Shown here one piece after another: positions 46,898-63,814 of a stretch of DNA of 64,000 nucleotides (positions are counted from its first letter, which is position 1; each line of letters begins with the position of its first letter). The notes below the pieces were generated by a model. It did no database searches, had not been told where the DNA came from, and worked only from the letters and a program-made list of their open reading frames with translations. The DNA comes from Candidatus Latescibacterota bacterium (lineage in GTDB: Bacteria > Latescibacterota > UBA2968 > GCA-2709665). The stretch covers positions 1,632,001-1,696,000 of the forward strand of contig OZ252100.1 in NCBI GenBank assembly GCA_965248435.1, read 5' to 3'. The translations under genes were made by a program, and so were the position numbers.

Positions 46898-47631
46898 GGA
46901 CTATATGCATCATTCAGGCACGAACCAATTCCCGAAGGTTTCCGGGAAAAGTATTGATGGATCTCTGCGGTAAACCAATGCTGATCCAGCAAATCCGTCG
47001 GTTGAAGCGCTGTACACAGCTTGATGAGATCGTCATCGCAACCACACGACACTCGACAGACGAACCGCTCGTCCATCTGGCAGATGAAGAACACGTCGGG
47101 TGGTTTCGAGGAAGCGAGCAAGACGTCTTGAGCCGTTTTGTTGGGGCGGCGAAAGAATTCAATGCTGAAGTCATTGTGCGAATAACAGCGGACTGTCCAT
47201 TGATCGATCCAGATGTTACGGATCTGGTCATTCAAGAATTGGTCAGCAAACCAAACGAGTTTGACTATGGAAGCAATGTTCAGGAGCGTACCTATCCTCG
47301 CGGTCTGGATACAGAAGTCTTCTTCCTCGATACCCTACTCCGCATGGGTAGACTCGCTGACTCAGAATGTGCACGCGAACACGTCACGATCCTCCCACGA
47401 TCAGAACGTCCAGATCTGTTTCTCTGCAAATCAGTGACTGATGACGAAGACAACTCTGACCTGAGGTGGACGGTCGACACGGTCGCCGATCTGGAGTTGA
47501 TTCGCCAGCTTTATCGCCGCCTGTCACTTGACTCTAAACACGTGCCATATCGGGAGATACTTTCGCACATCCGTCTTAACACCGATCTGGTCGGCTTGAA
47601 CACAGGTATTGAAACTTGGACACCAGCCTGA
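46894..47631 (+). CDS. SpsF-type acylneuraminate cytidylyltransferase (PseF-like) 1
   Basis: IIQAR..S.RFPGKVL, FRGSEQDVL.R, TADCPLID, REHVT and RWTVDT..D. Confidence 0.88.
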   Translation: MRTICIIQARTNSRRFPGKVLMDLCGKPMLIQQIRRLKRCTQLDEIVIATTRHSTDEPLVHLADEEHVGWFRGSEQDVLSRFVGAAKEFNAEVIVRITADCPLIDPDVTDLVIQELVSKPNEFDYGSNVQERTYPRGLDTEVFFLDTLLRMGRLADSECAREHVTILPRSERPDLFLCKSVTDDEDNSDLRWTVDTVADLELIRQLYRRLSLDSKHVPYREILSHIRLNTDLVGLNTGIETWTPA

Positions 47632-49160
47632 TCCCTCCAGCAGTCTTTCGGGTGGACAGCTCCCCGGCAATCGGCAGCGGCCACCTGATGCGATGCCTGG
47701 CACTCGCTCAAAACTGGCAGGCAAGGGGAGGTCACGTGACCTTCCTGAGCGCCTGCCGGAACAAGGAGCTCGAATCACGGCTCACTCGCTGCGGCGTGAC
47801 ATTCAAACGCCTCAAATCTGGTCTGCCACTCATCGATGACCTACAGCGGACCCTGGAGTTCCTCGGGCGCAGCGCGCCTGATGCTCGTGTTATTTTAGAT
47901 GGGTACCACTTCGATTCAGATTACCAAAGGGCACTGCGGAGACACGGGTTCCAAACACTGGTCATTGAAGACACGGTTCGCTTTCCGCACTACTATGCCG
48001 ATCTTCTGCTGAATCAGAACGACACCTCGGGGGAACGTGGATTTGTCTGTGACACTGACACCACCATCCTTTGCGGGTCTCGCTTTTCCCTGCTGCGGTC
48101 TGAATTTCTAAACGCGAAGCTTTCGACGAAAGAGATCCCATCTCGAGCCAAGAGACTCCTGGTAACTTTCGGCGGAAGTGATCCCGGAAACATTACGCTA
48201 GAGGTCATCAAATCCTTGGGGACGAGCGGGCTGTCGGACCTTGACATCAAGGTCCTAGTCGGAGCCGCGAATCAGAATCGGGAAAGCCTAAAAAAAGTAG
48301 CTGGCAGCCTGGGCATGGAAATACACCTGTTGACTCACGTGGCGGATATGGTGGGCCTCCTATCCTGGGCTGACTTGGCTGTGACTGCAGGAGGGACAAC
48401 GTGCTGGGAGTTGGCCCTTATGGGCGTCCCTGCACTTGTTCTCCAAACCGCAGAAAATCAGTCGGGAGTAATTGACACGCTCTCCCAGTTTGGAATATCT
48501 GTCAATATGGGATCCGCCGACAGCCTAAATCGGGAGAGATTGAAGAAAGAGATCGTCCAGCTCAGCGCCGATCAAGAGTGCCGCTTGCGAATGAGCAAGC
48601 TTGGCCGCTTGCTCATTGACGGAAATGGCGCGGATCGAGTCGTTGAGGCTTTCTTGGACGAGCACAGATCATCGCGCACCGACATCAGACCAGCTACGCT
48701 AGGGGATGCGCGAATCATCTGGAATTGGAGAAACGATCCGTTGGTTCGACAAAGCGCATTCAATTCAGACTCTATTTCATGGGAGAATCATCTTGCCTGG
48801 TATGTTGACAAGCTGAACTCCTCGGATACCAAAATCTGGATGCTTGATTACGGAAATTGCCCAGTGGGATGCATCCGCTACGATCGCGATGATACTGATT
48901 CTGCACAAATCAGCTTTGTTGTGGACCCAGAGCATCGAGGCAAAGGTTTCGGGACGATGCTTATCGAGAAGACGATACAACGGGCTTTCGTGGCGTTCAG
49001 TGTTCCCAGAGTAAAAGGTATCTCCTTTGTAAGCAACTTGGCTTCCTCAAAGGTATTCGCAAAAGCCGGCTTCATTAAGTCCTGCGAACGGGTCATCGCC
49101 GGTACGCAGTGCACAGTATTCGAACGAGACCGCGAAGATGGTCATGGAGCGCTTAATTGA
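47616..49160 (+). CDS. pseG: PseG UDP-sugar hydrolase fused to a PseH-like GNAT acetyltransferase
   Basis: FRVD...IG.GHLMRCLALA, LDGY.F, FGGSD, AGGTT.WE, AENQ and DGNGA.R; C-terminal WRND..VR, H..W, G.IR.D and RGKGFG. Confidence 0.88.
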   Translation: MDTSLIPPAVFRVDSSPAIGSGHLMRCLALAQNWQARGGHVTFLSACRNKELESRLTRCGVTFKRLKSGLPLIDDLQRTLEFLGRSAPDARVILDGYHFDSDYQRALRRHGFQTLVIEDTVRFPHYYADLLLNQNDTSGERGFVCDTDTTILCGSRFSLLRSEFLNAKLSTKEIPSRAKRLLVTFGGSDPGNITLEVIKSLGTSGLSDLDIKVLVGAANQNRESLKKVAGSLGMEIHLLTHVADMVGLLSWADLAVTAGGTTCWELALMGVPALVLQTAENQSGVIDTLSQFGISVNMGSADSLNRERLKKEIVQLSADQECRLRMSKLGRLLIDGNGADRVVEAFLDEHRSSRTDIRPATLGDARIIWNWRNDPLVRQSAFNSDSISWENHLAWYVDKLNSSDTKIWMLDYGNCPVGCIRYDRDDTDSAQISFVVDPEHRGKGFGTMLIEKTIQRAFVAFSVPRVKGISFVSNLASSKVFAKAGFIKSCERVIAGTQCTVFERDREDGHGALN

Positions 49161-50209
49161 CTAACCTGGAAGTAAACGGACGTAAGATCGGAGTCGGTAA
49201 GAGAGTTTATATAATCGCCGAGATGTCCGCCAACCACAATCAGGACCTAGACAATGCCATCCGGATTCTCAATGCTGCCAAAGAAGCCGGCGCCGACGCA
49301 GTCAAGCTTCAAACTTACACTCCTGACACACTCACGTTGAACTGCCGAAATCACTATTTCCGGATCCGTGATACACTCTGGCACGACCGGTTTCTGTACG
49401 ATCTTTACAGCGAAGCGTGCACACCTTGGGAATGGCAGCCAAAGCTCAAAGAGATCGCTGACGATGTCGGCCTGGACCTGTTCTCTACCCCTTTCGATTC
49501 GTCTGCAGTTGACTTCCTTGAAAGCATCGACGTTCCCGCTTACAAGATTGCGTCATTCGAAAATGTGGATCTCCCTTTACTACGGAAAGTCGCCCGAACT
49601 GGAAAGCCGATCATCGTGTCAACCGGCATGGCGACGCTTGCAGAGGTGGACGAAGCCGTACAGACGCTCAGGAGGGCAGGCTGCCAACAATTGTGCCTCC
49701 TTAAGTGCACGAGCTCCTACCCTGCGGATCCGAAGGAGATCAACCTTCGGACAATCCCCCACCTTTCGGAGGCCTTTCGGGTGCCGGTAGGACTGTCTGA
49801 TCACACGGTAGGGATCGCGGTTCCCGTAGCCGCGGTCTCACTTGGCGCGTGTGTAATTGAGAAGCATTTTACGCTGTCACGGAGTGATGGGGGACCGGAC
49901 AGCGCTTTCTCCTTGGAACCACACGAGTTCGAAGCCCTTGTCAAGGCAGTTCGCGTGGCCGAAGATGCTTTGGGTGAAGTTCGATATGGCGTCACCGAGG
50001 AAGAGAAGAAGAGTCGGGTATTTCGACGGTCGCTCTTTGCCGCAGACTCCATCAAATCCGGAGAGGCTTTTACTGCCGATAACCTCCGATCTGTTAGACC
50101 GGGACACGGCCTCCATCCGCGATTTATGGACGCTATTATAGGACGGCGTGCGAGGCAAGATATTGAATTCGGAACTCCTCTAGATTGGGCAATGGTCTCC
50201 GACGAATGA
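49157..50209 (+). CDS. pseI: Pseudaminic acid synthase
   Basis: IAEMSANHN, KLQTYT, TPWEW, KIASFE, STGMA, KCTSSYP, GLSDHT, IEKHF and RRSL plus SAF domain. Confidence 0.94.
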   Translation: MTNLEVNGRKIGVGKRVYIIAEMSANHNQDLDNAIRILNAAKEAGADAVKLQTYTPDTLTLNCRNHYFRIRDTLWHDRFLYDLYSEACTPWEWQPKLKEIADDVGLDLFSTPFDSSAVDFLESIDVPAYKIASFENVDLPLLRKVARTGKPIIVSTGMATLAEVDEAVQTLRRAGCQQLCLLKCTSSYPADPKEINLRTIPHLSEAFRVPVGLSDHTVGIAVPVAAVSLGACVIEKHFTLSRSDGGPDSAFSLEPHEFEALVKAVRVAEDALGEVRYGVTEEEKKSRVFRRSLFAADSIKSGEAFTADNLRSVRPGHGLHPRFMDAIIGRRARQDIEFGTPLDWAMVSDE

Positions 50210-50251: not shown

Positions 50252-51001
50252 GTGAAAGTTGTATGCACCATTGAGGCAAGGATGACTTCATCGAGGCTTC
50301 CAGGGAAAGTGCTGGCTCCGATCATGGGTCGACCAATGCTCGACCTAATGATCGAGCGACTGCATCGGTCTAGAACTGTCGATGAGATCGTCGTTGCCAC
50401 GACTGTGAATTCGGCCGATCAGCCGATTGCGGATCTGGCTGATGATTTAGGAGTATCCTGCTTTCGAGGAAGCGAGGAGGATGTCCTTGATCGCGTCTTA
50501 GAGGCAGCAAGACAAGCAGGTGCCGACGTCATTGTGGAAACGACCGGCGACTGTCCTCTCATCGACCCAAAAATTGTCGATCGGGTCGTAGAAACCTTGT
50601 TGAGAAATAGTGTCGACTACTGCTCTAATGCAGTTCGAAGAACCTATCCACGAGGAATGGATGTGGAGGTCTTCTGGTTCCACCACCTTGAGGAAATCGC
50701 TCAACTTACGAACGATCCGGTCGACCGAGAGCACGTGTCTACTTTCTTCCATCGATTCCCTGATCGGTATCGCTTGCTGAACGTGACAAGCTCTTTGCCC
50801 TCTCACACTCTCAGCCTTAGGCTAACCGTTGATACACAGGAAGACCTGGATATGGTTTCAAGCATTTTTGAATCTCTCTATATGCGGAATCCAGAGTTCG
50901 AACTAGAGGATATCCTGGATCTGCTTGCTGAAAATCCATCTCTTGCAGGGACAAACCGTCACGTCAAACATAAAACGGTGTTCAGCAAGATCTCTCTTTG
51001 A
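50252..51001 (+). CDS. SpsF-type cytidylyltransferase 2
   Basis: IEARMTSSRLPGKVL, FRGSEEDVL.R, TGDCPLID, REHV and RLTVDT.ED. Confidence 0.88.
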   Translation: MKVVCTIEARMTSSRLPGKVLAPIMGRPMLDLMIERLHRSRTVDEIVVATTVNSADQPIADLADDLGVSCFRGSEEDVLDRVLEAARQAGADVIVETTGDCPLIDPKIVDRVVETLLRNSVDYCSNAVRRTYPRGMDVEVFWFHHLEEIAQLTNDPVDREHVSTFFHRFPDRYRLLNVTSSLPSHTLSLRLTVDTQEDLDMVSSIFESLYMRNPEFELEDILDLLAENPSLAGTNRHVKHKTVFSKISL

Positions 51002-51041
51002 CCGCGCAATCGGTCTCGTACTAGCTTCGAGGAGGATTGGT

Positions 51042-52256
51042 ATGGAGTATTGCAGTAAGTGTGTGTATCCCTCGAATTCAGCAGTCAACCTGAATTTCGA
51101 CGAAGATGGAGTTTGCTCAGGCTGCTCGTACTTCGAAGAGATAGACAACATCGACTGGAAGGAGCGGGAAAAGACACTTGGTGATCTGCTCCAGAAATAT
51201 CGAAACCCTGAAGCACCTTATGATTGCATTATTCCTGTTAGTGGTGGAAAAGATAGCCATTTTCAAACATATCTCATCAAAGAGGTCTTTGGTCTGAAGC
51301 CGCTCCTCGTGACCTTTAACCATATCTGCAGTCCCTTGATTGGCCTGAAGAATATGGCCAATATTGTAGAGAGATTTGGTGTCGACCACGTACGGTTCAG
51401 CCCGAACCCCGTTCTAATCCGAAAGCTGATGAAATACACCCTTGAGAAGAGAGGAGATGCTTGCTGGTTCTGCCAGGGTGGCGTCGTCACAGTACCTATC
51501 CAGGTAGCTATCCAGTACAAAATTCCCTTGATTATCTGGGGTGAACACGGCTGGTCGCATTTGGCAGGGAAAAACAGCCTGGATGACATGGTCGAGTTCA
51601 GTGTAGAAGAGCGTTCAGAACTTTTCATGCGCGGATTATCCATCGAAAAGGTTCTAAAGGACAACCCAGACTTGGAGCGCCGGGATCTAAGCTGGTTGGA
51701 ATATCCCAGCACTGAGGAAATCGAGAGCGTAGGCGTTCGAGGAATCTATTTGGGCAACTACTATAAGTGGAACCAGAAGGCCCTAACGGAATTCGTAATT
51801 GACAAGTTTGGCTTTACCACAAGACCCAAAGCCAGGACCTACAACACGTATGCCGATGTCGACTGTCAGCTTTGCTCCGGCACAAATGACTACCTCAAGT
51901 ATCTGAAGTTTGGTTACGGTCGTACCACCGACCACGCAAGCCAGGACATCAGAGAAGGTCGAATCACGCGCGAAGAAGGCATTAAGCTTGTGAAAAATTA
52001 CGACCACAGGAAACCTGAAGACTTAGACACCTTTCTAGAAGAATTGGACCTGGACGAGGAGGAGTTTTACAAGATCGTTGATAGGTTCAGAGATCCTGAT
52101 GTTTGGGAACGGAATAACGATGGCGAGTGGGTCCGGAAGCCTTCCGCCGACATCGACCCTATCATCGACTCCTCCGGAGCCGACGAGATCGAAGATCGGA
52201 TGGCCTTTGTCAAGAATTGGACTGAAGACGAGGTCGATGGTCGCTGGTACTTCTAA
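51042..52256 (+). CDS. N-acetyl sugar amidotransferase (PseA/WbuX family) 1
   Basis: YC.KC, CSGC, YDCIIPVSGGKDS (PP-loop), GDACW, WGE and KFGYGR.TD. Confidence 0.88.
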   Translation: MEYCSKCVYPSNSAVNLNFDEDGVCSGCSYFEEIDNIDWKEREKTLGDLLQKYRNPEAPYDCIIPVSGGKDSHFQTYLIKEVFGLKPLLVTFNHICSPLIGLKNMANIVERFGVDHVRFSPNPVLIRKLMKYTLEKRGDACWFCQGGVVTVPIQVAIQYKIPLIIWGEHGWSHLAGKNSLDDMVEFSVEERSELFMRGLSIEKVLKDNPDLERRDLSWLEYPSTEEIESVGVRGIYLGNYYKWNQKALTEFVIDKFGFTTRPKARTYNTYADVDCQLCSGTNDYLKYLKFGYGRTTDHASQDIREGRITREEGIKLVKNYDHRKPEDLDTFLEELDLDEEEFYKIVDRFRDPDVWERNNDGEWVRKPSADIDPIIDSSGADEIEDRMAFVKNWTEDEVDGRWYF

Positions 52257-52262
52257 TCTTCT

Positions 52263-53057
52263 ATGGATCAAAAACGCCTTATGGCCCAAGCATCGCGAAA
52301 GATCGTCTCTCAGAGTTTGAGCTCGAAAACGAACACGACTTCGGATTTCAATTACTTAGACCAGCTCGAGGACTATTTCTTCCAAACTGATGGCACTTAC
52401 GCCGAGAAGATTGCAGCGTTCCCAAAATATGTTCCCCGCCAGAGACTGACCGACTTCCTTTCCCTTTACGAAATCTTTAAAAGGGTCCTCTCGGTCCAGG
52501 GTTCGGTGATAGACTGCGGGGTTTACCGCGGCAGATCGTTGATGACCTACGCCCAGCTTAGTGCTATTCTCGAACCCATGAACTATCAGCGACAAATCGT
52601 GGGATTCGACACTTTCAGGGGATTCCTTAGCTTATCGGAAGAGGATAGCTTGGGAACACACGATCAAACAAAAGCTGGTGGCTTCAAGGCGGATTCCTAC
52701 AATGAGCTTCTTGAGTGCATTCGACTATATGACGCGAACCGGTTTCTGAATCACATGCCGAAAGTGATTCTCGTAAAGGGAGACATCGTAGAAACAGCAC
52801 CTGCGTTTCTACAAAAGAACCCACACACCGTCGTAAGTCTCCTTTCTCTGGACCTTAGCCTATACGAGCCAACCAAAGCGGCGTTAAAAGCTTTCCTGCC
52901 TCGAATGCCGAAGGGCGCGGTCATCACTTTCTCGGAAATGAACTGTACAGACTTCAGCGGCGAGGTGCCGGCGGTAATCGAAGAGCTGGGCATCCGCAAC
53001 CTCCGGATCGAGCGGAATCCCTTTGACACCGTAGCTTCATTTGCAGTTCTGGAGTAG
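52263..53057 (+). CDS. TylF/MycF-like SAM-dependent methyltransferase
   Basis: GSVIDCGVYRG, GFDTF.GF, KGD..ET, LD..LYEPT and RMPKG. Confidence 0.75.
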   Translation: MDQKRLMAQASRKIVSQSLSSKTNTTSDFNYLDQLEDYFFQTDGTYAEKIAAFPKYVPRQRLTDFLSLYEIFKRVLSVQGSVIDCGVYRGRSLMTYAQLSAILEPMNYQRQIVGFDTFRGFLSLSEEDSLGTHDQTKAGGFKADSYNELLECIRLYDANRFLNHMPKVILVKGDIVETAPAFLQKNPHTVVSLLSLDLSLYEPTKAALKAFLPRMPKGAVITFSEMNCTDFSGEVPAVIEELGIRNLRIERNPFDTVASFAVLE

Positions 53058-54398
53058 TTGAAAGGTTTTTTGTCTATGCGCGCATTCCACGTTGAAGATC
53101 ACAATGTCCGCACCATGTGGACCCTTGCCGAAGAGCTTGTCCCGATCTATCGGACGCTGGTTTCACCTGGATTTGAGGAATCCCTTGGCCTGGTACAGAA
53201 TCGGCTACCCCTCAACATCAAGCGGTACCCTTCGGGAGGAAAGGTTTTCGACTGGACCATCCCACAGTCCTGGACCGTTCGTGAGGCCTATCTGGCGGAC
53301 ACGCAAGGCCGCAGGATCATCGAATACGCCAATGAACCTCTGTTCGTAGGGCCTTACAGCCAGCCGTTTTCAGGTGTCGTGGAAAAACAGGACCTCATGC
53401 CCCACCTTAACTCCCTATCTCACCTTCCTGATGCGATTCCGCTATGCCCTTCCTACTATGCGAAAGATTGGAAACTTGGGATTCCAGATGCGCTGAAGAA
53501 GCGGCTCAACGAAGACCGCTATAGGGTGCACATAGACTCGAGACTCGAGGACGGGAACCTTTGCATTGGGGAAGCATATCTACCCGGAAGGTCTGAGAAG
53601 GAGATAATCCTGACGACCTATATGTGTCATCCCGTGATGGCGAACGACAATATCTCCGGAGTTGCTGTGGCGTCGGAGCTTTTTCGGATTCTGTCGAGTT
53701 TTCCCGAAAGGAACTTCTCATACCGGCTCATCATCATCCCTGAGACAATCGGATCGATCACATTCCTTTACCACCATCAGCCCGAACTCAAAAACGTCAT
53801 CGGCGGCTACAATCTGACCTGCTGTGGAGATCCGGGAAAAATCCACTTCAAGCAATCCTGGTCCGGCGATTCACTACTCGACCGAGCCGCCCGGAAAGTC
53901 CTGATGGATAGAGAGCAGGATCATCGTATTCTGCCATACTACTTGAGTGGTTCTGACGAGCGGCAATTTAACGCCCCAGGCTTCCGCATTCCCATGCCGA
54001 CCATCATGAGAACGCCGCCTGCTCAGTTCCCGGAGTATCATTCCTCCTTTGACAACCTGAAGTTCATAACCCCGGACGCACTTCGAGACACACTACAGTT
54101 CGTTTTGGACACCCTATTCGTCGTGGATAACAACAGGACATACAAAAACATCTATCGGGCTGAGCCCTTTCTCTCGGATAAAGGAATCTTCACCCAGGTC
54201 CACGTGGGTCCGTACGGAGTCTTTAACAAGGGAAAGGCGGGCGTGGATCCGGGATATCTGAACCAGATTGTCATCCACGAAACAGATGGCCGCCAAGACC
54301 TTCTTTCTATAGCAGAGAAGTGGTCTTGTCCATTTCCAGAACTCCTGCACGCCTCCGAGAAGTTCAAGCGGGTCGATCTTGTCAACCTAGTAGAATAG
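53058..54398 (+). CDS. DUF4910 aminopeptidase-like (M28-related) protein, Cj1295-like
   Basis: PI.R.L...G, FDWTIP..W, TY.CHP.MANDN.SG, PETIGSI, GSDERQF, FPEYHSS.D and C-terminal HTH; start may be ATG 53076. Confidence 0.85.
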   Translation: MKGFLSMRAFHVEDHNVRTMWTLAEELVPIYRTLVSPGFEESLGLVQNRLPLNIKRYPSGGKVFDWTIPQSWTVREAYLADTQGRRIIEYANEPLFVGPYSQPFSGVVEKQDLMPHLNSLSHLPDAIPLCPSYYAKDWKLGIPDALKKRLNEDRYRVHIDSRLEDGNLCIGEAYLPGRSEKEIILTTYMCHPVMANDNISGVAVASELFRILSSFPERNFSYRLIIIPETIGSITFLYHHQPELKNVIGGYNLTCCGDPGKIHFKQSWSGDSLLDRAARKVLMDREQDHRILPYYLSGSDERQFNAPGFRIPMPTIMRTPPAQFPEYHSSFDNLKFITPDALRDTLQFVLDTLFVVDNNRTYKNIYRAEPFLSDKGIFTQVHVGPYGVFNKGKAGVDPGYLNQIVIHETDGRQDLLSIAEKWSCPFPELLHASEKFKRVDLVNLVE

Positions 54399-56714
54399 AC
54401 CTATAATCAATCATCTATAATGTATCCTTTCGATGCCTCCGAAGTAGAGGCGGCCATCGCGGCGCTTCTCGATGAAAATCACGATACTATCGTGATCCAT
54501 TCGAACATCTGCTCATTTGGGTACATTGAGAATCCTCTGAAGACAATAGCTGAATCCGTCTGCAAGGCAGCCTCTCCCGATCGGACTGTGCTTTTACCTA
54601 CCTTTACTCCCTCCTTCTGCCGCACCGGATGGTTCGACAGGGAAGAGACCCCATCCGAAACGGGAGCCCTGAGCGAACATTTCAGGAATCTGCCGAATGC
54701 CGTTCGAACTCCCTGCCCAATCAATTCCTTCGCTGTGTTCGGCCCCGATGCGGGCGCATTTATGGAGTACGAGGCCTCCGCGACATGCTGGGGGCCCGGA
54801 TCGATCTATGAAGAGATCTACAATAAGAACGCACTCATTGTCGGTCTGGGCGAGCCTCTTGCCCTCACTGCTTCCATCTTTCACCACGCCGAGGAACTCG
54901 TCGGTGTTCCCTATCGGTTCTTCAAAACGTTTTCGGGTCACGTCAACGCCGACGAATTGGTCACCAGTGTCTCAAAACGGCTGTATGTAAGGCGACTCGA
55001 CCTACCGGTCGAATACAGCTATCGCGTAGCCACCGATCGCCTTAAAGAGGCTGGGAAACTTTGCCGAGTTCCGCTTGGGACTTCTTTCGTGGAAGCCTTT
55101 TCAGCGAAGGAGGGCGTCGATACTCTGATGGAAATCCTTCACAACGACCCTCTCGCCACACTCACAAACCGGGAAATCTATCTGACTGCCAATGCGCAGC
55201 GCTCCAGCGTTTTTCTAGGAAGCACCAACCTCGAATTGACCGGGAAGACGTTCGCACGAGAATTCGAGCGGTTGACTGGCGAAGACTGCAGATTCGTAAA
55301 AACGGAATTTGGCAGATTTCGACAGGAGATCTTGGACCCAGAAAGTCAGCTTCGAACTGCCAATCCGGACTATGTGGTGTTTCTTGAGCGGGCTGAAGAG
55401 GTCCTTGGGAGCCAGATGGAAGGTTCGTTCAACGGAGATGGAGAACTCAGGGCCGAAATTGAAAGCCGAGTCAAACACTATCTACAAACGATTCGCGAGG
55501 CACGTTCGGCACTGTCAGGAACCTTCTTTGTTGCCAACCTGCAGTTCCTCACGTCCTCACCGTTCGGAAACGCCGATGCCACATTTGCTGCCGGCGACGC
55601 ATCCGTACTAGACATCGCAAATTCGATTTTGCGGGAAGCAGTGCAGGAGCTTGAGGATACATATATCCTCGATTTTTGTCAGGTCGCCAGGCGCTTTGGT
55701 ACAGAAAGAGTCCACCCAGGAAAGTACTGGTACGTCGGCAGAATTCCCTTTTGCAAGGAGTTCACAATCGAGCTCGCCGAAGTCCTTACAGGGATGGCGC
55801 TCGCCGCAGAAGAGAAGACAATACGTCTGATCGTGGTAGACCTCGATCAGACACTCTGGGGCGGAGTGGTAGGCGAGGATGGTGTCGAGGGAATAGCTCT
55901 CGGTGGAGATTTTCCTGGTAATGTCTATTCCGATATTCAGCGCTACCTAAAGGCGCTCACAAAACGCGGCATTGCTCTGGCCGTTTGCAGCAAAAACACT
56001 GAGGAAATTGCTCTCAAGACGATTCGCACTCACCCCGAAATGATCCTCGACGAAAGCGACTTCGTGGAGATGCGGATCAACTGGAAGGATAAAGCCACCA
56101 ACATCCGGTCCATCTCCCAGGCACTATCGCTGCGGCCGGCCTCGGTGATGTTTATCGATGACAACCCGATCGAGCGAGAGTGGGTCCGTAGGAACATTTC
56201 TGAATGCACCGTCCCGGAACTGCCCAAGGATCCTGCTGAATGGGTCGGATTTCTCTCCAAATTACCTTGTCTACAGACCGTCCGGATAACATCCGAAGAC
56301 CTCGGACGGACGAAGCAGTACGTGGGTCGGAAGAAGGCGAAGGACTTTGAAATGACGTGTGAGTCCATCGATGAATTCCTCTCGGAACTCAAAATGTGCG
56401 TCTACCTGGAGAAACTCAACGAGTTCAACGTCTCCCGAGTATGTCAACTGTTGACCAAGACCAACCAGTTCAACACGACCACCAAGCGTTATCGCAAATC
56501 TAACCTACGCTTGCTCATCGAGTCGCAGGATGCGGAGGTTTTCGCTGTTGGCCTGGAGGACGGGTTTACAGAGCGTGAAATCATAGGAGTTTTCATCCTG
56601 GTACCAACCGAAGAGACCCTGTTGATCGATTCGTTCTTGCTCAGCTGTCGCGTTTTGGGAAGAAATGTGGAGTCCGCTCTGCTCGGTTGGATTTCCACCC
56701 ACGCAATCAACAAG

Positions 56715-57768
56715 CTGGATTCAATGACTAAGTGCAACACTTGGACTTGAAGACTTCAGCTGGTGTTTTGAAGTTAAGACATTTTCTTGGTCGGTTGTTG
56801 ATCCGGTTCTGAATTTTCTTTAACTCGTGTTTGCTGACCTTTGAGAAGTCTGTCTTCTTGGGGAGGTATCTGCGGACCAGACCGATAGCGTTTTCCACAG
56901 CGCCTCGCTCCCAGCTGTGGAACGGTTTGCAGAAATAGGATTTGGTGCCAAGCACCTCGTTGACCCGTTGATGTTGGCCGTTTTCGGATCCGTTGTCATA
57001 TGTGATGCTCTTCCTCATGTGGGGAGGATGTCGCCCAAGGCGTCGATTAATCGCTTCGGCGACCTCCGAGGGTCCGTTCTTTGCCAGCTTAGCCAGGTGT
57101 AGGTATCTCGACGATCGCTCAAGACAAGCGCCAACGGCCTGTTTGCTCTCACGAGAGATGATGGTGTCGGATTCCCAGTGGCCAGGTTGTTTCCGTTTTT
57201 CGATGTAACGGGGACGTCGATCGATCGAAATACGGCCTGGAATGTGGCTTTCCCGGTGTTTTCGGGTATGCCACCGCGGCTTTCGTTTTTTGTGAGCTCG
57301 GGATAAGCAAGCAACCAGATCCCGCTGCTTGTGCACCTTTGGATCGTAGATATACTGGTAGATGGCTTCGTGGCTGATACCCGCGCTCGGACGCTCCTCG
57401 GGAAGCCTCCCAGCGATCAACTCGGGAGACCATCCTTGCTTGAGTTTGGTCTCGACATATCGCCGGATAACCGGATTCTTCAGCCGTTTCCGCTTGCCGG
57501 CCTCCCGCTTACGTTTCTCAGCCCTTCTGTGAGCCTGGAGGCCCGAGTAACTCTCAGCTATCGGGGACGGATTACGTTTCAACTCTCTTGAAATCGTGCT
57601 GGCGCTCCGGTCAAGGGCCTTGGCAATATCTCTAAGGCTTGCACCAGTGGCTCGACAAAGCGCAATCTGCTCGCGTTCGTCTATCGTAAGATGCTTGTAA
57701 TTGTTTCCCATACACTTAGGATAGGACAGTTGCTACCCTAAGTGTTGCACTTCCTTATTGAACTCGGG
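56715..57768 (-). mobile_element. IS30-family insertion sequence
   Basis: Imperfect terminal IRs TTCAATgActAAGTGCAACACTT / AAGTGTTGCACTTccTtATTGAA; CAAG direct repeat at 56711-56714 and 57769-57772; exact ends uncertain by 1-2 nt. Confidence 0.92.
56728..57711 (-). CDS. IS30 transposase
   Basis: YKHLT..ER, STISREL.RN, WSPE.I, S.E.IY.YI, GHWE.D, ITYDNG.E, WERG..EN..G..R and N.RPRK.L. Confidence 0.95.
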   Translation of the reverse strand: MGNNYKHLTIDEREQIALCRATGASLRDIAKALDRSASTISRELKRNPSPIAESYSGLQAHRRAEKRKREAGKRKRLKNPVIRRYVETKLKQGWSPELIAGRLPEERPSAGISHEAIYQYIYDPKVHKQRDLVACLSRAHKKRKPRWHTRKHRESHIPGRISIDRRPRYIEKRKQPGHWESDTIISRESKQAVGACLERSSRYLHLAKLAKNGPSEVAEAINRRLGRHPPHMRKSITYDNGSENGQHQRVNEVLGTKSYFCKPFHSWERGAVENAIGLVRRYLPKKTDFSKVSKHELKKIQNRINNRPRKCLNFKTPAEVFKSKCCT

Positions 57769-57956
57769 CAAGGGATTTCGACAACTTGTCGGATTGTTCG
57801 AGGCCACCCCGAGAAACGAACCGGTCGCCTCGCTCTATTCTCGACACGGATTCAGGCCGGTGACTGATCGCGAGTTCCGTCTCGACCTTGACAGCGTCCG
57901 CGTTGAGATTCCTGATTACTTCACGGTTTCCGAAAGCGGAGTGGATGAGGACCACG

Positions 57957-58433
57957 ATGAATCTGAAAAAGAGCGCAGAAGTTTCCACGTATACACTTGA
58001 TGAACTCACCGAGGGAATGTCGGCGCACTACACTGTGATGCTGGGCGGGCGGGAAGTGGGTCAGTTTGCCGGCACCTCTGGGGACTTGAGTCCCCTCCAC
58101 GTGGATGAGGAGTTTGGCAAGAATTCAGAATTCGGCTCTAATCTGGTCCACGGCATGTTGATCGCTTCACACTTCTCTACGCTCATCGGCGTCCATCTAC
58201 CAGGCCGAAATGCCCTACTTGCTGGAATAGATTTCGCCTTCGAGAAGCCCGTTCCCGTTGGCTCTGAAGTAACGGTTTCAGCCTCCATACTGGCGGTGCA
58301 GAAAGCCAACAGGATGGTTAAGCTGAACCTTTTGGCTTACTGGAATCGAGAGATTTGCGTTAGGGGTACGGCCAGCGTAAAGATCCAAAACGATCTGTCT
58401 AATCGCCCAGCGCAATCGGAGTCTTCCACATGA
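57957..58433 (+). CDS. MaoC/hot-dog family dehydratase
   Basis: FA..SGD..PLH.D, VHGML, G..LPG and F.KPV..G. Confidence 0.88.
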   Translation: MNLKKSAEVSTYTLDELTEGMSAHYTVMLGGREVGQFAGTSGDLSPLHVDEEFGKNSEFGSNLVHGMLIASHFSTLIGVHLPGRNALLAGIDFAFEKPVPVGSEVTVSASILAVQKANRMVKLNLLAYWNREICVRGTASVKIQNDLSNRPAQSESST

Positions 58434-59548
58434 CTCAAACAACAATCCACGACCCGTCAAAGCCTGGTGTCGCACTTGTGTCGGGTGGAACCGGCAGCCT
58501 TGGACAGGAAGTCGTGCGTGCACTGGCTGCGGCGGGATGGACTGTAGCATTTCAGTACAATAGGTCCGAAAAAACAGCCCGGAATTTGACGGAGGAAGTG
58601 CACAGGGCCCGTGGAACCGCCCATCCATTCCAGTTCGCCTTCGAATCAGGTTTGAGATCCCCAGAGGCCTTTATAAAGGAGATCTCCGATCAACTAGGAT
58701 TCATCCGCGCGTTTATCCACTGCTGCACACCCGTGTTCAGGCTATCGGATTATCGATCCAACTGGATGGATGTATTCAATGATATGGTGTCCCTCAACCT
58801 CGAAATGTTCCTAGGAATGGCCAATGCCTGCTTGCCACCGATGATGTTTCGGCAAGACGGAACCGTGGTTACAATTTTGTCCGATGCAGTAAGGCCTGAC
58901 AGGATCCCGCAGTTTTCCGCTTACGCTGCGGCAAAATTGGCGCAAGCCTCCCTTGTCAAAGATTTGTCTGAATCCGTCGAGGGTGCCGGAGTTCGGGTCG
59001 CCGGTTTGCTGCCAGGCGCGTTCGTCCAAGATCAAGGCAAGGAGAAGAATGAATTACCAGGCCCTGTAATCAATGCAATACGATCCCGCTGGCCAGTCGG
59101 CCTACCCCCGGTCAGATTGGCGCACGTCATCGAGAAAGCGATTCGACCCGATTCAGATCTTCAAAACGGACAGTTCCTTTCCATCGACGCGATGGGTGGG
59201 AAACTTGATGTGACACTCAGCGGATTCTTTGCTGGAGAGGCAAAGGATCCATCGCCATCCGTATCCCCAGAGCAAGCCCATGCCCTGGCCCCAGATACAG
59301 AATCCAATGATGCGTTGCGTTCGGATCTCAAGGAAGTCTTTCAAGAGGCCCTGGAACTCAACGGGAAAGAGGATCTGGAGGATGTCAGACTCGGCATAGG
59401 AGCGTGGGATTCCCTTCAGCATCTGGATCTCTTGATGTCGATCGAACACAAACTGAACGTAGATTTTGGAGACATATCGGGAGATTCGTTGACCAGCTTC
59501 CTGGACATCCTGGCGGCGGTTCGTCGCCTCAAAGCAGAGAGTCGATGA
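58430..59548 (+). CDS. SDR/ketoreductase fused to a C-terminal acyl carrier protein
   Basis: VSGGTGSLG and YAAAK; linker; C-terminal WDSLQHL.L...IE (phosphopantetheine serine). Confidence 0.8.
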   Translation: MTQTTIHDPSKPGVALVSGGTGSLGQEVVRALAAAGWTVAFQYNRSEKTARNLTEEVHRARGTAHPFQFAFESGLRSPEAFIKEISDQLGFIRAFIHCCTPVFRLSDYRSNWMDVFNDMVSLNLEMFLGMANACLPPMMFRQDGTVVTILSDAVRPDRIPQFSAYAAAKLAQASLVKDLSESVEGAGVRVAGLLPGAFVQDQGKEKNELPGPVINAIRSRWPVGLPPVRLAHVIEKAIRPDSDLQNGQFLSIDAMGGKLDVTLSGFFAGEAKDPSPSVSPEQAHALAPDTESNDALRSDLKEVFQEALELNGKEDLEDVRLGIGAWDSLQHLDLLMSIEHKLNVDFGDISGDSLTSFLDILAAVRRLKAESR

Positions 59549-60774
59549 CCATGATCTCCGATAACACCGAGGGTCACTTTGATTCGCTCGCGTTCGAGCG
59601 GTTTCCTTTCATCACTGGGATGCGAACGGACCCGGAGCCGCTGAAGGGAATTCCCTCATTTCTTCCATTCCACCTCAACTACGAACCGCGTGGGGGTTTT
59701 GCGGCCCAAAAGGCAGGTCCCGGTGTGCGCGCGGCCCTTCTGATGGCTTACAAGACAGGATCCATGTTGTCGACGCCCCTCGGCGAAGGGAGTTTAAACG
59801 ACGCGCTCTCTCGTGAAATCCTAGCGCTCATTGCCGAAGCCTGTGGCGGGATCGGTGGGCGCAGGTTCTTTGAGCCGGGCTGTGGGAGAGGGGCGTTGCT
59901 CAAATCACTTCTGGACGAGGGTGCTTCTGCGGCTGACGGCTGCGAGCCAGGCCTTCAGGCGAAGGAGATCACGCAGCGAGAAAGTATGCGTGTCCAGCGG
60001 GAGTTCTTCGGAGAATCCGTCTACAAATCGGATTACGACTGTATATTTCACTATGGCGTGCTTGAGCACGTGGAAGAGCCGGCGGATTTCCTCTACGCGA
60101 ACGCACAGCTTCTAAAGACCGGTGGAACGGTCTTTGTGGCCGTCCCAGGATGCGAGCTGGACTTCGCACTGGGGAATTTCATGGTATTGGCTCACGAACA
60201 CTTGTCATATTTCACTGAATATTCCCTTCGTAGGATGATGTCGGCCGTCGGACTGCAGAACATCAGAACATGCACACTTTCATACAGTCACGGCATACTA
60301 TGTGCGTGGGGAGTACACGGGGATGATCCACGCCCTTCTCGGATCCTTACTTCCATGAACCACGAAGATTCCAGCCTCTTCCAAACATTCGTTCAGAAAA
60401 GCAAGACCCTTCTTGAAAAGCTTCAGAGTCGAGCAAACGCGCTTGCCGCCCGGGGCAAAACACTTGGCCTCTACGGCGTACCTCGCGCTCTACCGGGTCT
60501 ATTGGAGACCGGTGTTCCGCCAAGAATCTTCGACGGTGACTCTGCTAAACACGGAGCCTACTTCAGTGGCTCGCCAAACCCAGTAGAACCGCCCGATGAG
60601 TTGATACAGAACCCTGTCGATGAGCTCTGGATCCTGCCGATCCATCACGATCGAGCAATCCGCGACTACCTGGACGATGAGATTCTCCCCAATGCCAAAA
60701 TAAGTGTATTGTCCGTAATGGACTTCGCCAAAATGATCCGAGATAATCGACTTCCGGAGAGCACCTATGTCTGA
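59545..60774 (+). CDS. Class I SAM-dependent methyltransferase (sugar C/O-methyltransferase-like)
   Basis: EPGCG.G, G.EP, VLEHV..P and HEH..YF; C-terminal ..YG/D...K.G segment. Confidence 0.8.
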   Translation: MTMISDNTEGHFDSLAFERFPFITGMRTDPEPLKGIPSFLPFHLNYEPRGGFAAQKAGPGVRAALLMAYKTGSMLSTPLGEGSLNDALSREILALIAEACGGIGGRRFFEPGCGRGALLKSLLDEGASAADGCEPGLQAKEITQRESMRVQREFFGESVYKSDYDCIFHYGVLEHVEEPADFLYANAQLLKTGGTVFVAVPGCELDFALGNFMVLAHEHLSYFTEYSLRRMMSAVGLQNIRTCTLSYSHGILCAWGVHGDDPRPSRILTSMNHEDSSLFQTFVQKSKTLLEKLQSRANALAARGKTLGLYGVPRALPGLLETGVPPRIFDGDSAKHGAYFSGSPNPVEPPDELIQNPVDELWILPIHHDRAIRDYLDDEILPNAKISVLSVMDFAKMIRDNRLPESTYV

Positions 60775-61870
60775 CTACGGAAAACCTCTGTATGTGGATA
60801 GGCTGAATTACTGCAAGCGCTGCTGCCTTCCTGAGACGGTCGAGGGCATCAAGTTCGATGAGATGGGCTTCTGTCAGGCCTGCCAGTCCTCCGAGCACAA
60901 GATGCACATGGACTGGACTGAAAGGGAGAAAGCTTTGCGGGAAATTCTGGAGTTCCACAAATCGCGGAGCGGAACCAACTACGATTGCATTGTCCCCGTT
61001 AGTGGCGGAAAGGACAGCGCTTTCCAACTTCACGTAATCGTTAAGGTCTACGGAATGAAACCGCTGGCCGTCACCCACAACCAGGGCCACGGGTGGCAGT
61101 CGGAAATCGGTAAGTTCAATCTCGAAAACATCCTCACAAAACTCAATGTCGATCACATTATGTTTACTCCTAGCTCGGACCTGGTTCGAAGAATCTCGCG
61201 AAGATCACTGGACACGATCGGCGATGCATGCTGGCATTGTCACGCAGGGATCGGAGCCTTCCCCTTACAGATCGCGGTCAAGTTCAACATCCCACTCATC
61301 ATCTGGGGGGAATCGGTCGCCGAGACGTCAGGGCGGGCGACCCATCTCGATCCGATCAAGTTCGACAGAGACTATTTGATGCGAGAGTCAATCAAGGTTG
61401 TGCCCAAGAAGATGGCTTGCGCGGACCTGTCTGAACGCGACCTGTCGCCCTACAACCTTCCATCGGCTGAAGAACTGGAAAGGGTCGGCGTCACTGGAAT
61501 CTATCTGGGCAATTACATCTTTTGGGACGAGGAGAGGCAGATGGAATTCCTGCAGGCCGAGTACGGCTGGCGGGACGGCTACGTCGAGGGCGCCTACAAA
61601 AGGTACAAGAGTGTGGAATGCCGGATGGCGGGCATCCACGACTATACGAAATTTCTGAAGCGCGGCTTCGGTCGCGGCACTGACCAGGCGAGTCTAGATG
61701 TGAGGAATGGACTTCTGACACAGGAAGAAGGTTTCGAGCTGGCCAAGAAGGTCGACGCAGAAAAACCTGGGATGCTTAAAGAATATCTGAAGATCGTGGA
61801 TCTCGAAGAGAGAGAGCTAGAGCACATCATCAAGAGCCAGAGAACCGGTAAAGCGAAACTCCTGCCTTGA
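60767..61870 (+). CDS. N-acetyl sugar amidotransferase (PseA/WbuX family) 2
   Basis: YCKRC, C.AC, YDCIVPVSGGKDS, GDACWHCH, WGE and KRGFGRGTD. Confidence 0.88.
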   Translation: MSDYGKPLYVDRLNYCKRCCLPETVEGIKFDEMGFCQACQSSEHKMHMDWTEREKALREILEFHKSRSGTNYDCIVPVSGGKDSAFQLHVIVKVYGMKPLAVTHNQGHGWQSEIGKFNLENILTKLNVDHIMFTPSSDLVRRISRRSLDTIGDACWHCHAGIGAFPLQIAVKFNIPLIIWGESVAETSGRATHLDPIKFDRDYLMRESIKVVPKKMACADLSERDLSPYNLPSAEELERVGVTGIYLGNYIFWDEERQMEFLQAEYGWRDGYVEGAYKRYKSVECRMAGIHDYTKFLKRGFGRGTDQASLDVRNGLLTQEEGFELAKKVDAEKPGMLKEYLKIVDLEERELEHIIKSQRTGKAKLLP

Positions 61871-61879
61871 GATATCCGA

Positions 61880-63241
61880 ATGTCTGAACCCTGCCTCCAA
61901 TCGGCAAAGGATCTGATCGACCAGGTCTGTTCCCACAGGATGAGCGTTCGAGAAGTGGTCGAATCCCATCTTGATCGGATATCGCTGCTTGACGAGTCTG
62001 TCGAGGCCTGGGCGTGGTTGGATACGAACAGAGCCCTGGTCAACGCCGATAGAATTGACAGAGAAATCGCTGACGGATCCTTTCGAGGTGACCTCTTCGG
62101 AGTTCCTGTTGGGATCAAAGATATCTTCAATACTGAGGATATGCCGACCGGGATGGGAAGTCCCATTTGGGAGGGATTTACTGCTGGTAACGATGCCAGA
62201 GTGGTGTTCTACCTTCGGCGTCAAGGAGGCATCTTTCCTGGAAAGACGGTAACGGCAGAGTTTGCCGTTCAAGCCCCCGGAAAGACGAGGAATCCACATA
62301 ATTCTGAATATTCACCGGGCACCTCGTCGAGCGGCTCTGCCGCAGCCGTAGCAAGCTGCATGGTCCCGTTGGCTATCGGCACCCAGACCGCCGGATCTAT
62401 CTGCCGTCCCGCCAGCTATTGTGGCGTCTATGGATTCAAGCCTTCCTTCGGTCTGGTTCCGCGAACCGGTGTCCTGAAGACAACCGACACAATGGATACC
62501 GTCGGGGGCTTCGCTAGAACGCCCGAGGACCTTCGCATCCTGTTTGATGTCATTCGGGTGCACGGGGCAAACTTCCCCATCGGCTTCGAGGCCTTATCCG
62601 ATCCATCACGCCAGGAAAGAGGAGATCGTCCGTGGCGGATTGCCGTCGATTCACACTTGAATGAGCGTTTCAGCCTTCCTTACGCTTACGAAGCCCTCCT
62701 ATTGCTGCTGGACGAAATCGAAGGCCACCCGGAAGTCGAACTCTACGAAAGGCCTCTGCCGGAGCTGTTCAATCATGCCCACGAAATCCATACAACCATC
62801 TACGAAAAGTGCCTCTCCTACTACTTCAAGAAGGAGTTTGGCGACACAGAATTCATAAGCCCCATTATCCACGAGATGATCGATCGCGGAAGCTGCGTGT
62901 CCGTGGAAGACTATGAACGGGCGCTGTCACGTCAGATCGAAATGTCGCGAATGCTGGACGAGTATTTCTCAGACATCGACGCGATTCTCACGCTTACGAC
63001 TCAGGGCATCGCTCCAAAGTACTCGGAGCCGGACCTCCCTGATACCTGTTTGACGTGGACGCTGTGCGGTGCGCCGGTCGCAAGCATTCCGATCTTTCGG
63101 GGCCCCGACTCCATGCCATTTGGCCTTCAAGCCGTCGGCAGGAAGTATAACGACTACCTGCTGCTCAAGTTCGCTGAGTTTGCATCCACAATCAGGCCTG
63201 CGCTGGAGCCAATCATTGCGAACACGACGGCGGCTGCATAA
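61880..63241 (+). CDS. Amidase signature family enzyme (GatA-like)
   Basis: GVPVGIKD, GKT.T.EFA, PG.SSSGSAAAVA and GTQT.GSI.RPASYCG. Confidence 0.9.
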   Translation: MSEPCLQSAKDLIDQVCSHRMSVREVVESHLDRISLLDESVEAWAWLDTNRALVNADRIDREIADGSFRGDLFGVPVGIKDIFNTEDMPTGMGSPIWEGFTAGNDARVVFYLRRQGGIFPGKTVTAEFAVQAPGKTRNPHNSEYSPGTSSSGSAAAVASCMVPLAIGTQTAGSICRPASYCGVYGFKPSFGLVPRTGVLKTTDTMDTVGGFARTPEDLRILFDVIRVHGANFPIGFEALSDPSRQERGDRPWRIAVDSHLNERFSLPYAYEALLLLLDEIEGHPEVELYERPLPELFNHAHEIHTTIYEKCLSYYFKKEFGDTEFISPIIHEMIDRGSCVSVEDYERALSRQIEMSRMLDEYFSDIDAILTLTTQGIAPKYSEPDLPDTCLTWTLCGAPVASIPIFRGPDSMPFGLQAVGRKYNDYLLLKFAEFASTIRPALEPIIANTTAAA

Positions 63242-63262: not shown

Positions 63263-63814
63263 ATGGATTTAAAGTTCCTGGAGACCCAACGTCTGATTCT
63301 ACGGGGCCTTTGTTCTACCGATGCAAATCAGGAGTACCTTGCCTGGTTGAACGACCCCGACGTCCTGAGGTTCCGTGGGCCAAAGGCCTATCCAAGTGAC
63401 ATCGATGGACTCAAAGCATACATCGAGGGTATATCAGGCCGCGGCGATCTGGTGCTTGCCATCTGTCTCAAGAGCGGCGGAAGACACATCGGGAATATCG
63501 CTCTGAATACGATTCAGTGGATTCACCGATCGGCAGAATTGTCTATGATGATCGGTGCGAAAGATGTATGGGGTCAGGGTTATGCAAAGGAGGCGATTCA
63601 CGCAGTGTGTGGTCACGCGATCTTGTCAATGGGACTGTGTCGGGTTTGGGCGGAATCACCGAATCCAGCGTTCAATCGAGCCGTTGAATCCCTAGGCTGG
63701 AAGCACGAAGGAACGAAGCGAGACGCCTTCCTTCTGGACGGCAAGCTTATCAATATCAAGTGCTACAGTATCCTGAAGCGGGAGTTTGCTCCTCGGCCTG
63801 AGTTCGCTCCATGA
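63263..63814 (+). CDS. RimL-type GNAT N-acetyltransferase
   Basis: LET.RL.LR, WLND, HIGNI.L, WGQGYA.EA and G...EG. Confidence 0.85.
   Translation: MDLKFLETQRLILRGLCSTDANQEYLAWLNDPDVLRFRGPKAYPSDIDGLKAYIEGISGRGDLVLAICLKSGGRHIGNIALNTIQWIHRSAELSMMIGAKDVWGQGYAKEAIHAVCGHAILSMGLCRVWAESPNPAFNRAVESLGWKHEGTKRDAFLLDGKLINIKCYSILKREFAPRPEFAP

Follow-up and report, generated by a model that had tools for sequence, protein, structure and literature searches.

The nonulosonic acids on flagella, S-layers, capsules and lipopolysaccharide differ from one another chiefly in the N-acyl groups that they carry, and recognition by antibodies, phages and host lectins depends on this variation. The installation of acyl groups beyond acetyl, acetimidoyl and hydroxybutyryl is unexplained; in 2017 the genetic basis of N-glyceroylation was called a major open challenge in a study of Tannerella (PMC5378307), and Campylobacter jejuni offers just a knockout of Cj1295. 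This protein, of the DUF4910 family, is required for 5-(2,3-di-O-methylglyceroyl)-pseudaminic acid, and cleavage of the 5-acetamido group is its suggested function (PMC3068675, Hitchen 2010); cj1302 has an FkbH domain (PMC7099621). For another DUF4910 protein, CA_C2195 of Clostridium acetobutylicum, Table 2 of the structural report lists a neighborhood with NeuB, an aminosugar N-acetyltransferase, an acyl carrier protein (ACP) and an 'aminosugar N-acetyltransferase + HAD phosphatase' (PMC4000134, Das et al. 2014), while the passages of that report on function go no further than 'modified carbohydrate biosynthesis'. The link of DUF4910 to a glycerate-derived N-acyl group was therefore in print by 2010, and the DUF4910/N-acetyltransferase/ACP neighborhood by 2014. 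Here we describe a locus in a 64,000-nucleotide stretch of a Candidatus Latescibacterota genome (assembly GCA_965248435.1, contig OZ252100.1, positions 1,632,001 to 1,696,000; hereafter the window) that adds to this picture fusions as physical links between the components, a dehydratase/reductase branch accompanying DUF4910 and an AAC(3)-like domain, and inactivation by an insertion sequence (IS). We consider it reasonably likely that these genes act together as an 'acyl-swap' cassette built around a carrier protein, which modifies a nonulosonic acid of the pseudaminic (Pse) or the legionaminic/neuraminic (Leg/Neu) type by way of a lactyl group. The gene observation itself is confirmed and the interpretation partly supported, for a system that is known genetically and unsolved biochemically.

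In polyketide pathways, FkbH-type enzymes load glyceryl from 1,3-bisphosphoglycerate onto an ACP, as is established and was reportedly shown by Dorrestein et al. in 2006, and a dehydratase together with a ketoreductase reportedly turns glyceryl-ACP via pyruvoyl-ACP into lactyl-ACP, as Zhang et al. in 2011 and He et al. in 2014 are said to have described. Stand-alone FkbH/OzmB proteins are glyceryl-ACP loaders. In PMC7901079, lactate-ACP is tabulated as the product of an FkbH module.

Downstream of a pseB/pseC/pseG-pseH/pseI set in the window lie, in order, genes for a TylF-like methyltransferase, a DUF4910 protein, an AAC(3)-like/FkbH fusion, a MaoC-type dehydratase, a short-chain dehydrogenase/reductase (SDR) fused to an ACP, and a second methyltransferase (Table 1). 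Because the identical order recurs across unrelated phyla, as detailed below, this arrangement is not due to chance. Hidden Markov model mapping with Pfam and NCBIfam bore out the domain calls of an earlier reading of this DNA (the original prediction): its DUF4910, AAC(3)-FkbH, MaoC, SDR-ACP and methyltransferase genes were all found in place, and they sit, as it had said, inside a pse cluster, with PseB, PseG and PseI passing their NCBIfam cut-offs upstream. The TylF-like methyltransferase is part of the conserved set, yet it falls outside the range 53058-60774 that the prediction had covered.

The N-terminal part of the fusion is a member of the Antibiotic_NAT fold family and not a resistance AAC(3). 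It scores 48.4 bits against 270 on the NCBIfam AAC_3 model and far under the cut-off of every subtype model, and on these grounds a role as a drug-resistance gene was rejected. In a search of solved structures it matches 17 Antibiotic_NAT proteins, the best being 7lap_A (2.1e-9), with FrbF (3sma_A) at 3.5e-7; four further matches were designed repeat proteins and were disregarded. Its HHAE motif aligns with HHAE of 7lap_A, and H155 and E158 of this motif, which we take to be catalytic, are invariant among relatives. We propose that this domain is an N-acyltransferase. A predicted complex of the domain with the ACP tail scored 0.01, which counts neither for nor against such a role. The FkbH part passes a second family model besides the one in Table 1 (TIGR01681, 72.6 bits against a cut-off of 35.75) and matches 3slr_A (E 1.6e-39), its sole solved relative, an uncharacterized Bacteroides protein. 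The haloacid dehalogenase (HAD) DxDxT motif reads D474-L-D476-Q-T478, with D474, D476 and T478 invariant in the alignment of relatives, and an SCRVLGR motif, presumably also catalytic, is conserved upstream of the point at which the gene is broken by an IS.

The MaoC gene probably starts at ATG 57954 rather than at 57888, and its product carries GDLSPLH where relatives have GD.N.LH, which we assume to be the Asp/His motif that defines hydratases of this family. In the SDR, G19, G22 and G25 (GxxGxxG) and Y165 and K169 (YxxxK) are invariant among relatives. Foldseek comparison of the SDR model gave FabG chains, which are 3-oxoacyl-ACP reductases, as its top four matches (TM 0.85-0.89 on the target). 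The AlphaFold2 model of the whole protein (mean pLDDT 86.4) shows residues 262-292 as a disordered linker and, after it, a small bundle of helices, predicted at 295-308, 328-342 and 357-371, one of which begins with Ser328. W326-D327-S328 is invariant in all 23 relatives. A profile built from 13 such tails gave 114 matches in the PDB at E<=1, and the 60 shown are all ACPs; the best is 2lml_A (3.9e-11), E. coli ACP scores 3.9e-6, and the tail serine aligns with the serine of the DSL motif. The Pfam PP-binding model matches 9 of the 13 family tails at E<=1, the best at 4e-5. The tail thus has the features of an ACP, and its phosphopantetheinylation is predicted.

The DUF4910 protein aligns over its full length with the C. 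acetobutylicum structure 3k9t_A (E 1.3e-89). It has the three-domain architecture of the family and keeps the His, Asp and His positions that correspond to the zinc ligands of 3k9t, as these are named in PMC4000134. From these features we propose a mono-zinc, M28-like fold acting as an N-deacetylase. DUF4910, the fusion and FkbH are each single-copy in the genome of the window.

The original prediction had regarded the two fusions as unusual. They proved instead to be families, and the separate MaoC of the window is one arrangement among several. A search with the fusion protein against a collection of 5.8 billion proteins (E<=1e-3) gave 49 matches, 12 of which are near full-length AAC(3)-FkbH proteins (738-837 aa, 32-51% identity, coverage >=88%), each representing a protein cluster; the other 37 comprise one 438-aa fragment with an AAC(3)-like domain and, for the remainder, the FkbH part alone. 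For SDR-ACP, a word-index search returned 2 relatives and an exhaustive search 3,919 at E<=1e-3. Among the best 150 of these 3,919, the two-domain SDR-ACP architecture (351-392 aa) accounts for at least 24, longer forms of 474-523 aa that align through the tail for at least 16, and stand-alone ACPs sharing 46-49% identity with the tail for two. The longer forms that were tested carried adh_short and MaoC in 10 of 10 cases, MaoC passing its cut-off in 9. SDR-ACP and MaoC-SDR-ACP proteins span dozens of clusters.

FkbH relatives numbered 587 in a scan of species-representative genomes; the locus counts given here refer to the best 80 of the 587. These 80 loci were searched by tblastn (E<=1e-5) with the window proteins; as the genomes are related, counts are reported without a statistical test. 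The AAC(3)-FkbH fusion occurs in 7 of the 80, always as an open frame (819-958 aa), in three alphaproteobacterial metagenome-assembled (MAG) or single-amplified genomes, Bradyrhizobium jicamae, a Streptomyces, a Riflebacteria MAG and a Planctomycetota MAG. Five of these seven fusions are followed directly by a gene for a single MaoC-SDR-ACP protein (482-526 aa) ending in a G/TWDSL motif. The other two, L014 (9971-12847, 958 aa) and L018 (9758-12571, 937 aa), encode AAC(3)-FkbH-ACP as a single polypeptide, the ACP of which scores 13.6 and 34.5 bits, respectively, on PP-binding and has a GWDSM motif; no MaoC or SDR homolog was found in either locus, which looks like a one-protein, glyceroyl-only version of the cassette. 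No full-length counterpart of the fusion turned up in 40 genomes from the genus, family and order to which the window belongs. The sole same-family relative with a good FkbH match (G005:C74:7-1113, 38% identity, query residues 387-755) has it at the extreme edge of a contig, from base 7 on, so that the match may or may not be part of a fusion.

The survey of gene neighborhoods, which the original prediction had named as a check, showed the set in synteny with NeuB/Pse genes across other phyla. A DUF4910 gene adjoins the fusion in 5 of the 7 fusion loci and appears in 2 of the 73 other FkbH loci, one of which (L017) has a separate AAC(3)-like gene. NeuB/PseI-like genes were present in 10 of the 80 loci, including three fusion loci (L012, L016 and L022); in B. 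jicamae (L016), pseI (55% identity) and pseG-H lie just upstream of the fusion. TylF-like genes occur in 6 of the 80 loci and in 3 of the 7 fusion loci, standing beside DUF4910 in L012, L014 and L016. MaoC homologs were found in 16 of the 80. A homolog of the terminal methyltransferase of the window, which probably starts at ATG 59545, overlapping the SDR-ACP stop, was found in a single locus of the 80, and this gene is not a conserved member of the cassette. Apart from the fusion loci, ammonia-oxidizing archaea (Nitrosopumilales/Nitrososphaerales; L028, L032, L044, L055, L059 and L073) have stand-alone FkbH with MaoC homologs nearby, and L028 and L073 have NeuB-like genes too; a three-carbon (C3) acyl carrier route may also operate on archaeal sugars.

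On the basis of these domains, motifs, fusions and neighborhoods, we propose the following pathway, whose individual reactions, acyl group, acylation site and timing of acylation are all predictions. FkbH would take glyceryl from 1,3-bisphosphoglycerate, dephosphorylate it and load it onto the phosphopantetheine of Ser328 in the SDR-tethered ACP. The MaoC dehydratase would then take off the 3-hydroxyl, giving an (enol)pyruvoyl-ACP, and the SDR would reduce this to lactyl-ACP, as in lactate-starter modules of trans-acyltransferase (trans-AT) polyketide synthases (PKSs). AAC(3)-FkbH-ACP proteins that lack a dehydratase and reductase would halt at glyceroyl. The N5 acetyl of pseudaminic acid originates from UDP-GlcNAc and would therefore have to be removed before another acyl group is placed there. 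DUF4910 would be the zinc protein that strips an N-acetyl group, most likely this N5 acetyl, which an alternative PseH could not replace. Transfer of the ACP-bound acyl group to the exposed amine would fall to the AAC(3)-like domain, the obvious candidate given its physical connection to the loader and, in two loci, also to the carrier. The hydroxyl introduced in this way may finally be O-methylated by the TylF-like enzyme. More tentatively, and with some doubt, we suggest that the AAC(3)-fold domain depends on acyl-ACP as the donor for N-acylation within a two- or three-protein line that installs N-lactyl or 2-O-methyl-lactyl groups on the amines of (CMP-)nonulosonic acids. If so, these groups would be a chemically undescribed decoration of sialic-acid-like sugars, and unfused versions free of the dehydratase and ketoreductase would account for the N-glyceroyl sugars of Campylobacter and Tannerella. 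In the fusions four activities are physically joined, those of loader, carrier, dehydratase/reductase pair and AAC(3)-fold transferase. The hypothesis thereby becomes specific enough for tests in vitro, for which intact genes in cultured organisms can be named.

Several observations weigh against this proposal. Both variants of C. jejuni NCTC 11168 examined, the producer of the modified sugar among them, have Cj1296/7 out of frame (PMC3068675, Table 1), and a 2026 study describes cj1296 as 'consistently OFF' (PMC13130089). Because cj1296 is off in a producer of a glyceroyl sugar, the AAC(3)-like protein may be dispensable as the transferase in that organism. The domain logic of the original prediction, in which FkbH, dehydratase, ketoreductase, ACP and an AAC(3)-fold transferase work beside DUF4910 on a nonulosonic acid, is supported, and its assignment of the transfer to the AAC(3) domain is weakened by the C. 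jejuni data. Its proposal that DUF4910 deacetylates is not new, the same hypothesis having been published for Cj1295 (PMC3068675). DUF4910 has one zinc where M28 peptidases have two, and its crystallographers doubted peptidase activity (PMC4000134). The ACP tail of the window itself scores 13.4-13.8 bits on Pfam PP-binding (PF00550), under the cut-off of 20.8. The module is not exclusive to nonulosonic-acid loci, because L013 (Streptomyces) and L018 (Planctomycetota) show no nonulosonic-acid genes (tblastn E<=1e-5; L018 ends ~5 kb downstream); L013 has AAC(3)-FkbH and MaoC-SDR-ACP but no NeuB, Pse or DUF4910 match within 10 kb on either side. In the open-access literature we found no enzymology of any cassette enzyme from any organism and, judged by titles, no N-lactyl nonulosonic acid. 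Finally, the strain of the window, to judge from its damaged genes, could not itself make the product.

The transferred group might instead be glyceroyl or O-methyl-glyceroyl, with MaoC and the SDR otherwise employed, for instance in inversion at C2 or in dealing with a side product. The C3 N-acyl groups established to date, as far as two sources go, are glyceroyl (PMC5378307) and 2,3-di-O-methylglyceroyl (PMC3068675) only. The L014 and L018 proteins, with AAC(3)-FkbH-ACP and neither MaoC nor SDR, suggest that a glyceroyl-only version exists, and an O-methyltransferase of the TylF type is conserved in the set. However, MaoC and SDR are covalently attached to the ACP served by FkbH in 5 of the 7 fusion loci, both proteins of the window retain their catalytic motifs, and the polyketide loading set of FkbH, dehydratase, ketoreductase and ACP reportedly ends, as noted above, at lactyl-ACP. 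We therefore regard this explanation as unlikely for the window cassette and favor the lactyl route.

A second possibility concerns the amine. The AAC(3)-like domain could acylate a biosynthetic amine directly, such as that of the UDP-4-amino sugar made by PseC, where a free amine arises naturally and the domain would stand in for PseH, and DUF4910 would then have nothing to do with deacetylation. The lack of a classical two-zinc peptidase site in DUF4910 (PMC4000134) is compatible with this, as is the failure of tblastn to find DUF4910 in the locus DNA of 2 of the 7 fusion loci. Against it stand the enrichment of DUF4910 beside the fusion (5 of 7 loci, versus 2 of the 73 others) and conservation of its three zinc-binding positions. 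The window also retains a PseG-PseH fusion for ordinary N-acetylation, and the unusual acyl group of C. jejuni is on N5 (PMC3068675), from which the acetyl derived from UDP-GlcNAc must first be removed. Direct acylation consequently seems to us improbable, to about the degree that a glyceroyl product does, and deacetylation followed by acyl transfer is the scheme that we retain.

That the cassette serves another amino sugar or a small secondary metabolite, its adjacency to pse genes reflecting the packing of an island, is suggested by the Streptomyces locus just described and by the absence of a NeuB-like gene from 70 of the 80 FkbH loci, but it is very unlikely given that the module lies between pseI and a second NeuB set, that NeuB/PseI-like genes stand beside the fusion in L012, L016 and L022, and that Cj1295 genetics tie DUF4910 to a pseudaminic acid derivative (PMC3068675). 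The Streptomyces cassette may act on another amine, for example in a natural product. A methoxymalonyl-ACP route, which needs FkbK/FkbI-type dehydrogenases, was rejected: such enzymes are absent, and MaoC and an SDR are present.

The reading given in the original prediction does not include inactivation of the module by an IS30-family element. The element splits the fusion gene after residue 765, and the frame continues 11 codons into it. Directly past the break, the displaced remnant lines up with the C-termini of 10 intact relatives. The reading phase of the two halves fits a simple insertion, and joined they would give ~840 residues, compared with 819-958 in intact relatives. The FkbH C-terminal transferase domain is incomplete as it stands, its last 75 codons lying 1,058 bp downstream; because the break cuts off the end of this domain, which contains nearly invariant columns, the fusion gene is regarded as inactive in this strain. 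The element has the transposase domains, inverted repeats and short target duplication of the IS30 family: the HTH_38 match is accompanied by an rve score of 26.6 bits (under the cut-off of 32.6), the terminal inverted repeats are 23 nt long and 87% complementary, and each of 7 copies compared across the genome, including that of the window, has its own 3-bp direct repeat. The genome contains 36 matches, 32 of them near full length, and 22 of the 36, the window copy included, show 100% identity across the 1,043 nt used in the search; the element has therefore expanded recently in this genome. In addition, pseC has a single frameshift near 46.5 kb, its two frames covering positions 1-269 and 264-378 of the PseC model, which may reflect real decay or an assembly error. 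With its fusion gene split and pseC frameshifted, the cassette appears to be dead in this genome, and the window copy, as a pseudogene, is a pointer to intact relatives rather than an experimental system.

The sugar that the cassette acted upon could be pseudaminic acid or a neighboring Leg/Neu-type sugar. It need not be pseudaminic acid, because a Leg/Neu-type set lies directly downstream (L093, Table 1), which leaves the cassette flanked by nonulosonic-acid sets of both types, each of them damaged: in the Leg/Neu-type set, a second copy of the same IS (~L093 7736-8790) splits the gene for a NeuC-like UDP-GlcNAc 2-epimerase (L093 7588-9821). The genome has four strong NeuB genes, one of them ~6.5 kb past the end of the window. 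Elsewhere on the chromosome, two strong NeuB-family genes 5 kb apart (G000:C1:4298068-4303748) mark a third nonulosonic-acid locus.

From 42.9 kb onward, all that remains of the plus strand of the window makes up a single long glycan gene cluster, which starts with an ABC exporter and has a G+C content of 0.51-0.54, versus 0.57-0.60 elsewhere in the window. Both cytidylyltransferases of the window score ~30 bits on the PseF model against a cut-off of 206 and are thus unlike canonical PseF; one of the two may be specific for the modified sugar, and L022 has a homolog directly after DUF4910. An amidase-signature enzyme adjoins the second WbuX/PseA-type amidotransferase and may be a source of ammonia for acetamidino formation.

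Table 1. Features of the cassette and its surroundings, in window coordinates except for the last row; scores are in bits, followed where given by the model cut-off (vs).
Feature	Position	Strand	Basis or remarks
pseB	44740-45714	+	NCBIfam PseB 485 vs 408
pseC, in two overlapping frames	45711-46589 and 46475-46897	+	NCBIfam PseC 353 and 94
Cytidylyltransferase 1	46777-47631	+	CTP_transf_3 (Pfam)
pseG-pseH fusion	47616-49160	+	PseG 203 vs 154; PseH domain 53, under cut-off 93
pseI	49157-50209	+	NCBIfam PseI 511 vs 340
Cytidylyltransferase 2	50252-51001	+	CTP_transf_3, 109.5
WbuX/PseA-type amidotransferase 1	50925-52256	+	TIGR03573, 355
TylF-like O-methyltransferase	52263-53057	+	PF05711, 31 vs 23
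DUF4910 protein (Cj1295/CA_C2195 type)	53058-54398	+	PF16254, 276.7; also DUF2172, M28-like region, HTH_47
Fusion gene, 5' part (reading frame)	54420-56750	+	Antibiotic_NAT, FkbH_N, FkbH; stop at 56750 within the IS
AAC(3)-like (Antibiotic_NAT fold) domain, residues 1-262	54420-55205	+	PF02522, 90.1 vs 25, residues 26-240
FkbH part, residues 263-765 (FkbH_N, HAD-IIIC)	55206-56713	+	TIGR01686, 240 vs 146.65, residues 468-763
Target-site duplication CAA, left copy	56711-56713		Flank comparison, 7 IS copies
IS30-family element, 1,055 bp	56714-57768	-	Transposase open reading frame 56728-57711 (-); HTH_38 69.5; rve 26.6
Target-site duplication CAA, right copy	57769-57771		Flank comparison, 7 IS copies
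Displaced 3' remnant of fusion gene, last 75 codons (FkbH C-terminal domain) and stop	57770-58000	+	Open frame 57725-58000
MaoC-type hot-dog dehydratase, 159 aa	57954-58433	+	PF01575, 57 vs 27; GDLSPLH motif
SDR-ACP: SDR residues 14-260, linker ~262-292, ACP ~295-372 (59312-59548)	58430-59548	+	adh_short, 86
Predicted phosphopantetheine serine, Ser328	59411-59413	+	WDS motif; aligned to the ACP DSL serine
S-adenosylmethionine methyltransferase (Methyltransf_23, Methyltransf_14; C-methyltransferase-type C-terminal domain)	59545-60774	+	Pfam; open frame from 59404
WbuX-type amidotransferase 2	60767-61870	+	TIGR03573, 346
Amidase	61880-63241	+	Amidase, 244
GNAT	63263-63814	+	Acetyltransf_3, 75
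L093, 18 kb downstream of the window	G000:C1:1696001-1714000		Formyltransferase, PseC/LegC-like aminotransferase, NeuB (451), NeuC-like hydrolyzing epimerase, NeuD-type acetyltransferase, nucleotidyltransferase, LegB-like dehydratase

Compared with described systems, the locus most resembles that of C. jejuni NCTC 11168, where Cj1295, an adjoining N-acetyltransferase gene and a gene with an FkbH domain likewise lie inside a pse locus, together with acpP2 and acpP3, which we take to be its ACP genes. The C. jejuni genes, however, are individual, phase-variable ones, with cj1296 usually switched off, whereas the window has fusions of acyltransferase with FkbH and of reductase with ACP, the former broken by an IS. 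To our knowledge the C. jejuni locus has no MaoC/SDR pair, and the dehydratase and reductase of the window predict a lactyl rather than a glyceroyl product. CA_C2195 (PDB 3k9t) shares the DUF4910/DUF2172/HTH_47 architecture and has NeuB, N-acetyltransferase and ACP genes nearby, but neither MaoC nor an SDR is listed in the passages of PMC4000134 on this neighborhood. The inserted element is a typical member of the IS30 family, present in this genome in many near-identical copies. The AAC(3)-like domain belongs with AAC(3) and FrbF in the PF02522 fold family and aligns at HHAE with 7lap_A, but it differs in its fusion to FkbH and in its predicted donor, an acyl-ACP instead of acetyl-CoA. Among the Pfam hits of the 18 open reading frames between 42900 and 63814, no ketosynthase or other PKS domain turned up. 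With the lactate-starter modules of trans-AT PKSs (FR901464/spliceostatin type), the cassette nevertheless shares its FkbH loader, dehydratase, ketoreductase and ACP, all of which are present, and in five loci its relatives combine dehydratase, reductase and ACP on one polypeptide, as those modules do. It differs from them in having a single MaoC hot-dog domain, a FabG-like SDR and a predicted amine acceptor reached through the AAC(3)-fold domain. We propose that the cassette would act like a lactate-starter loading module without being a member of a PKS.

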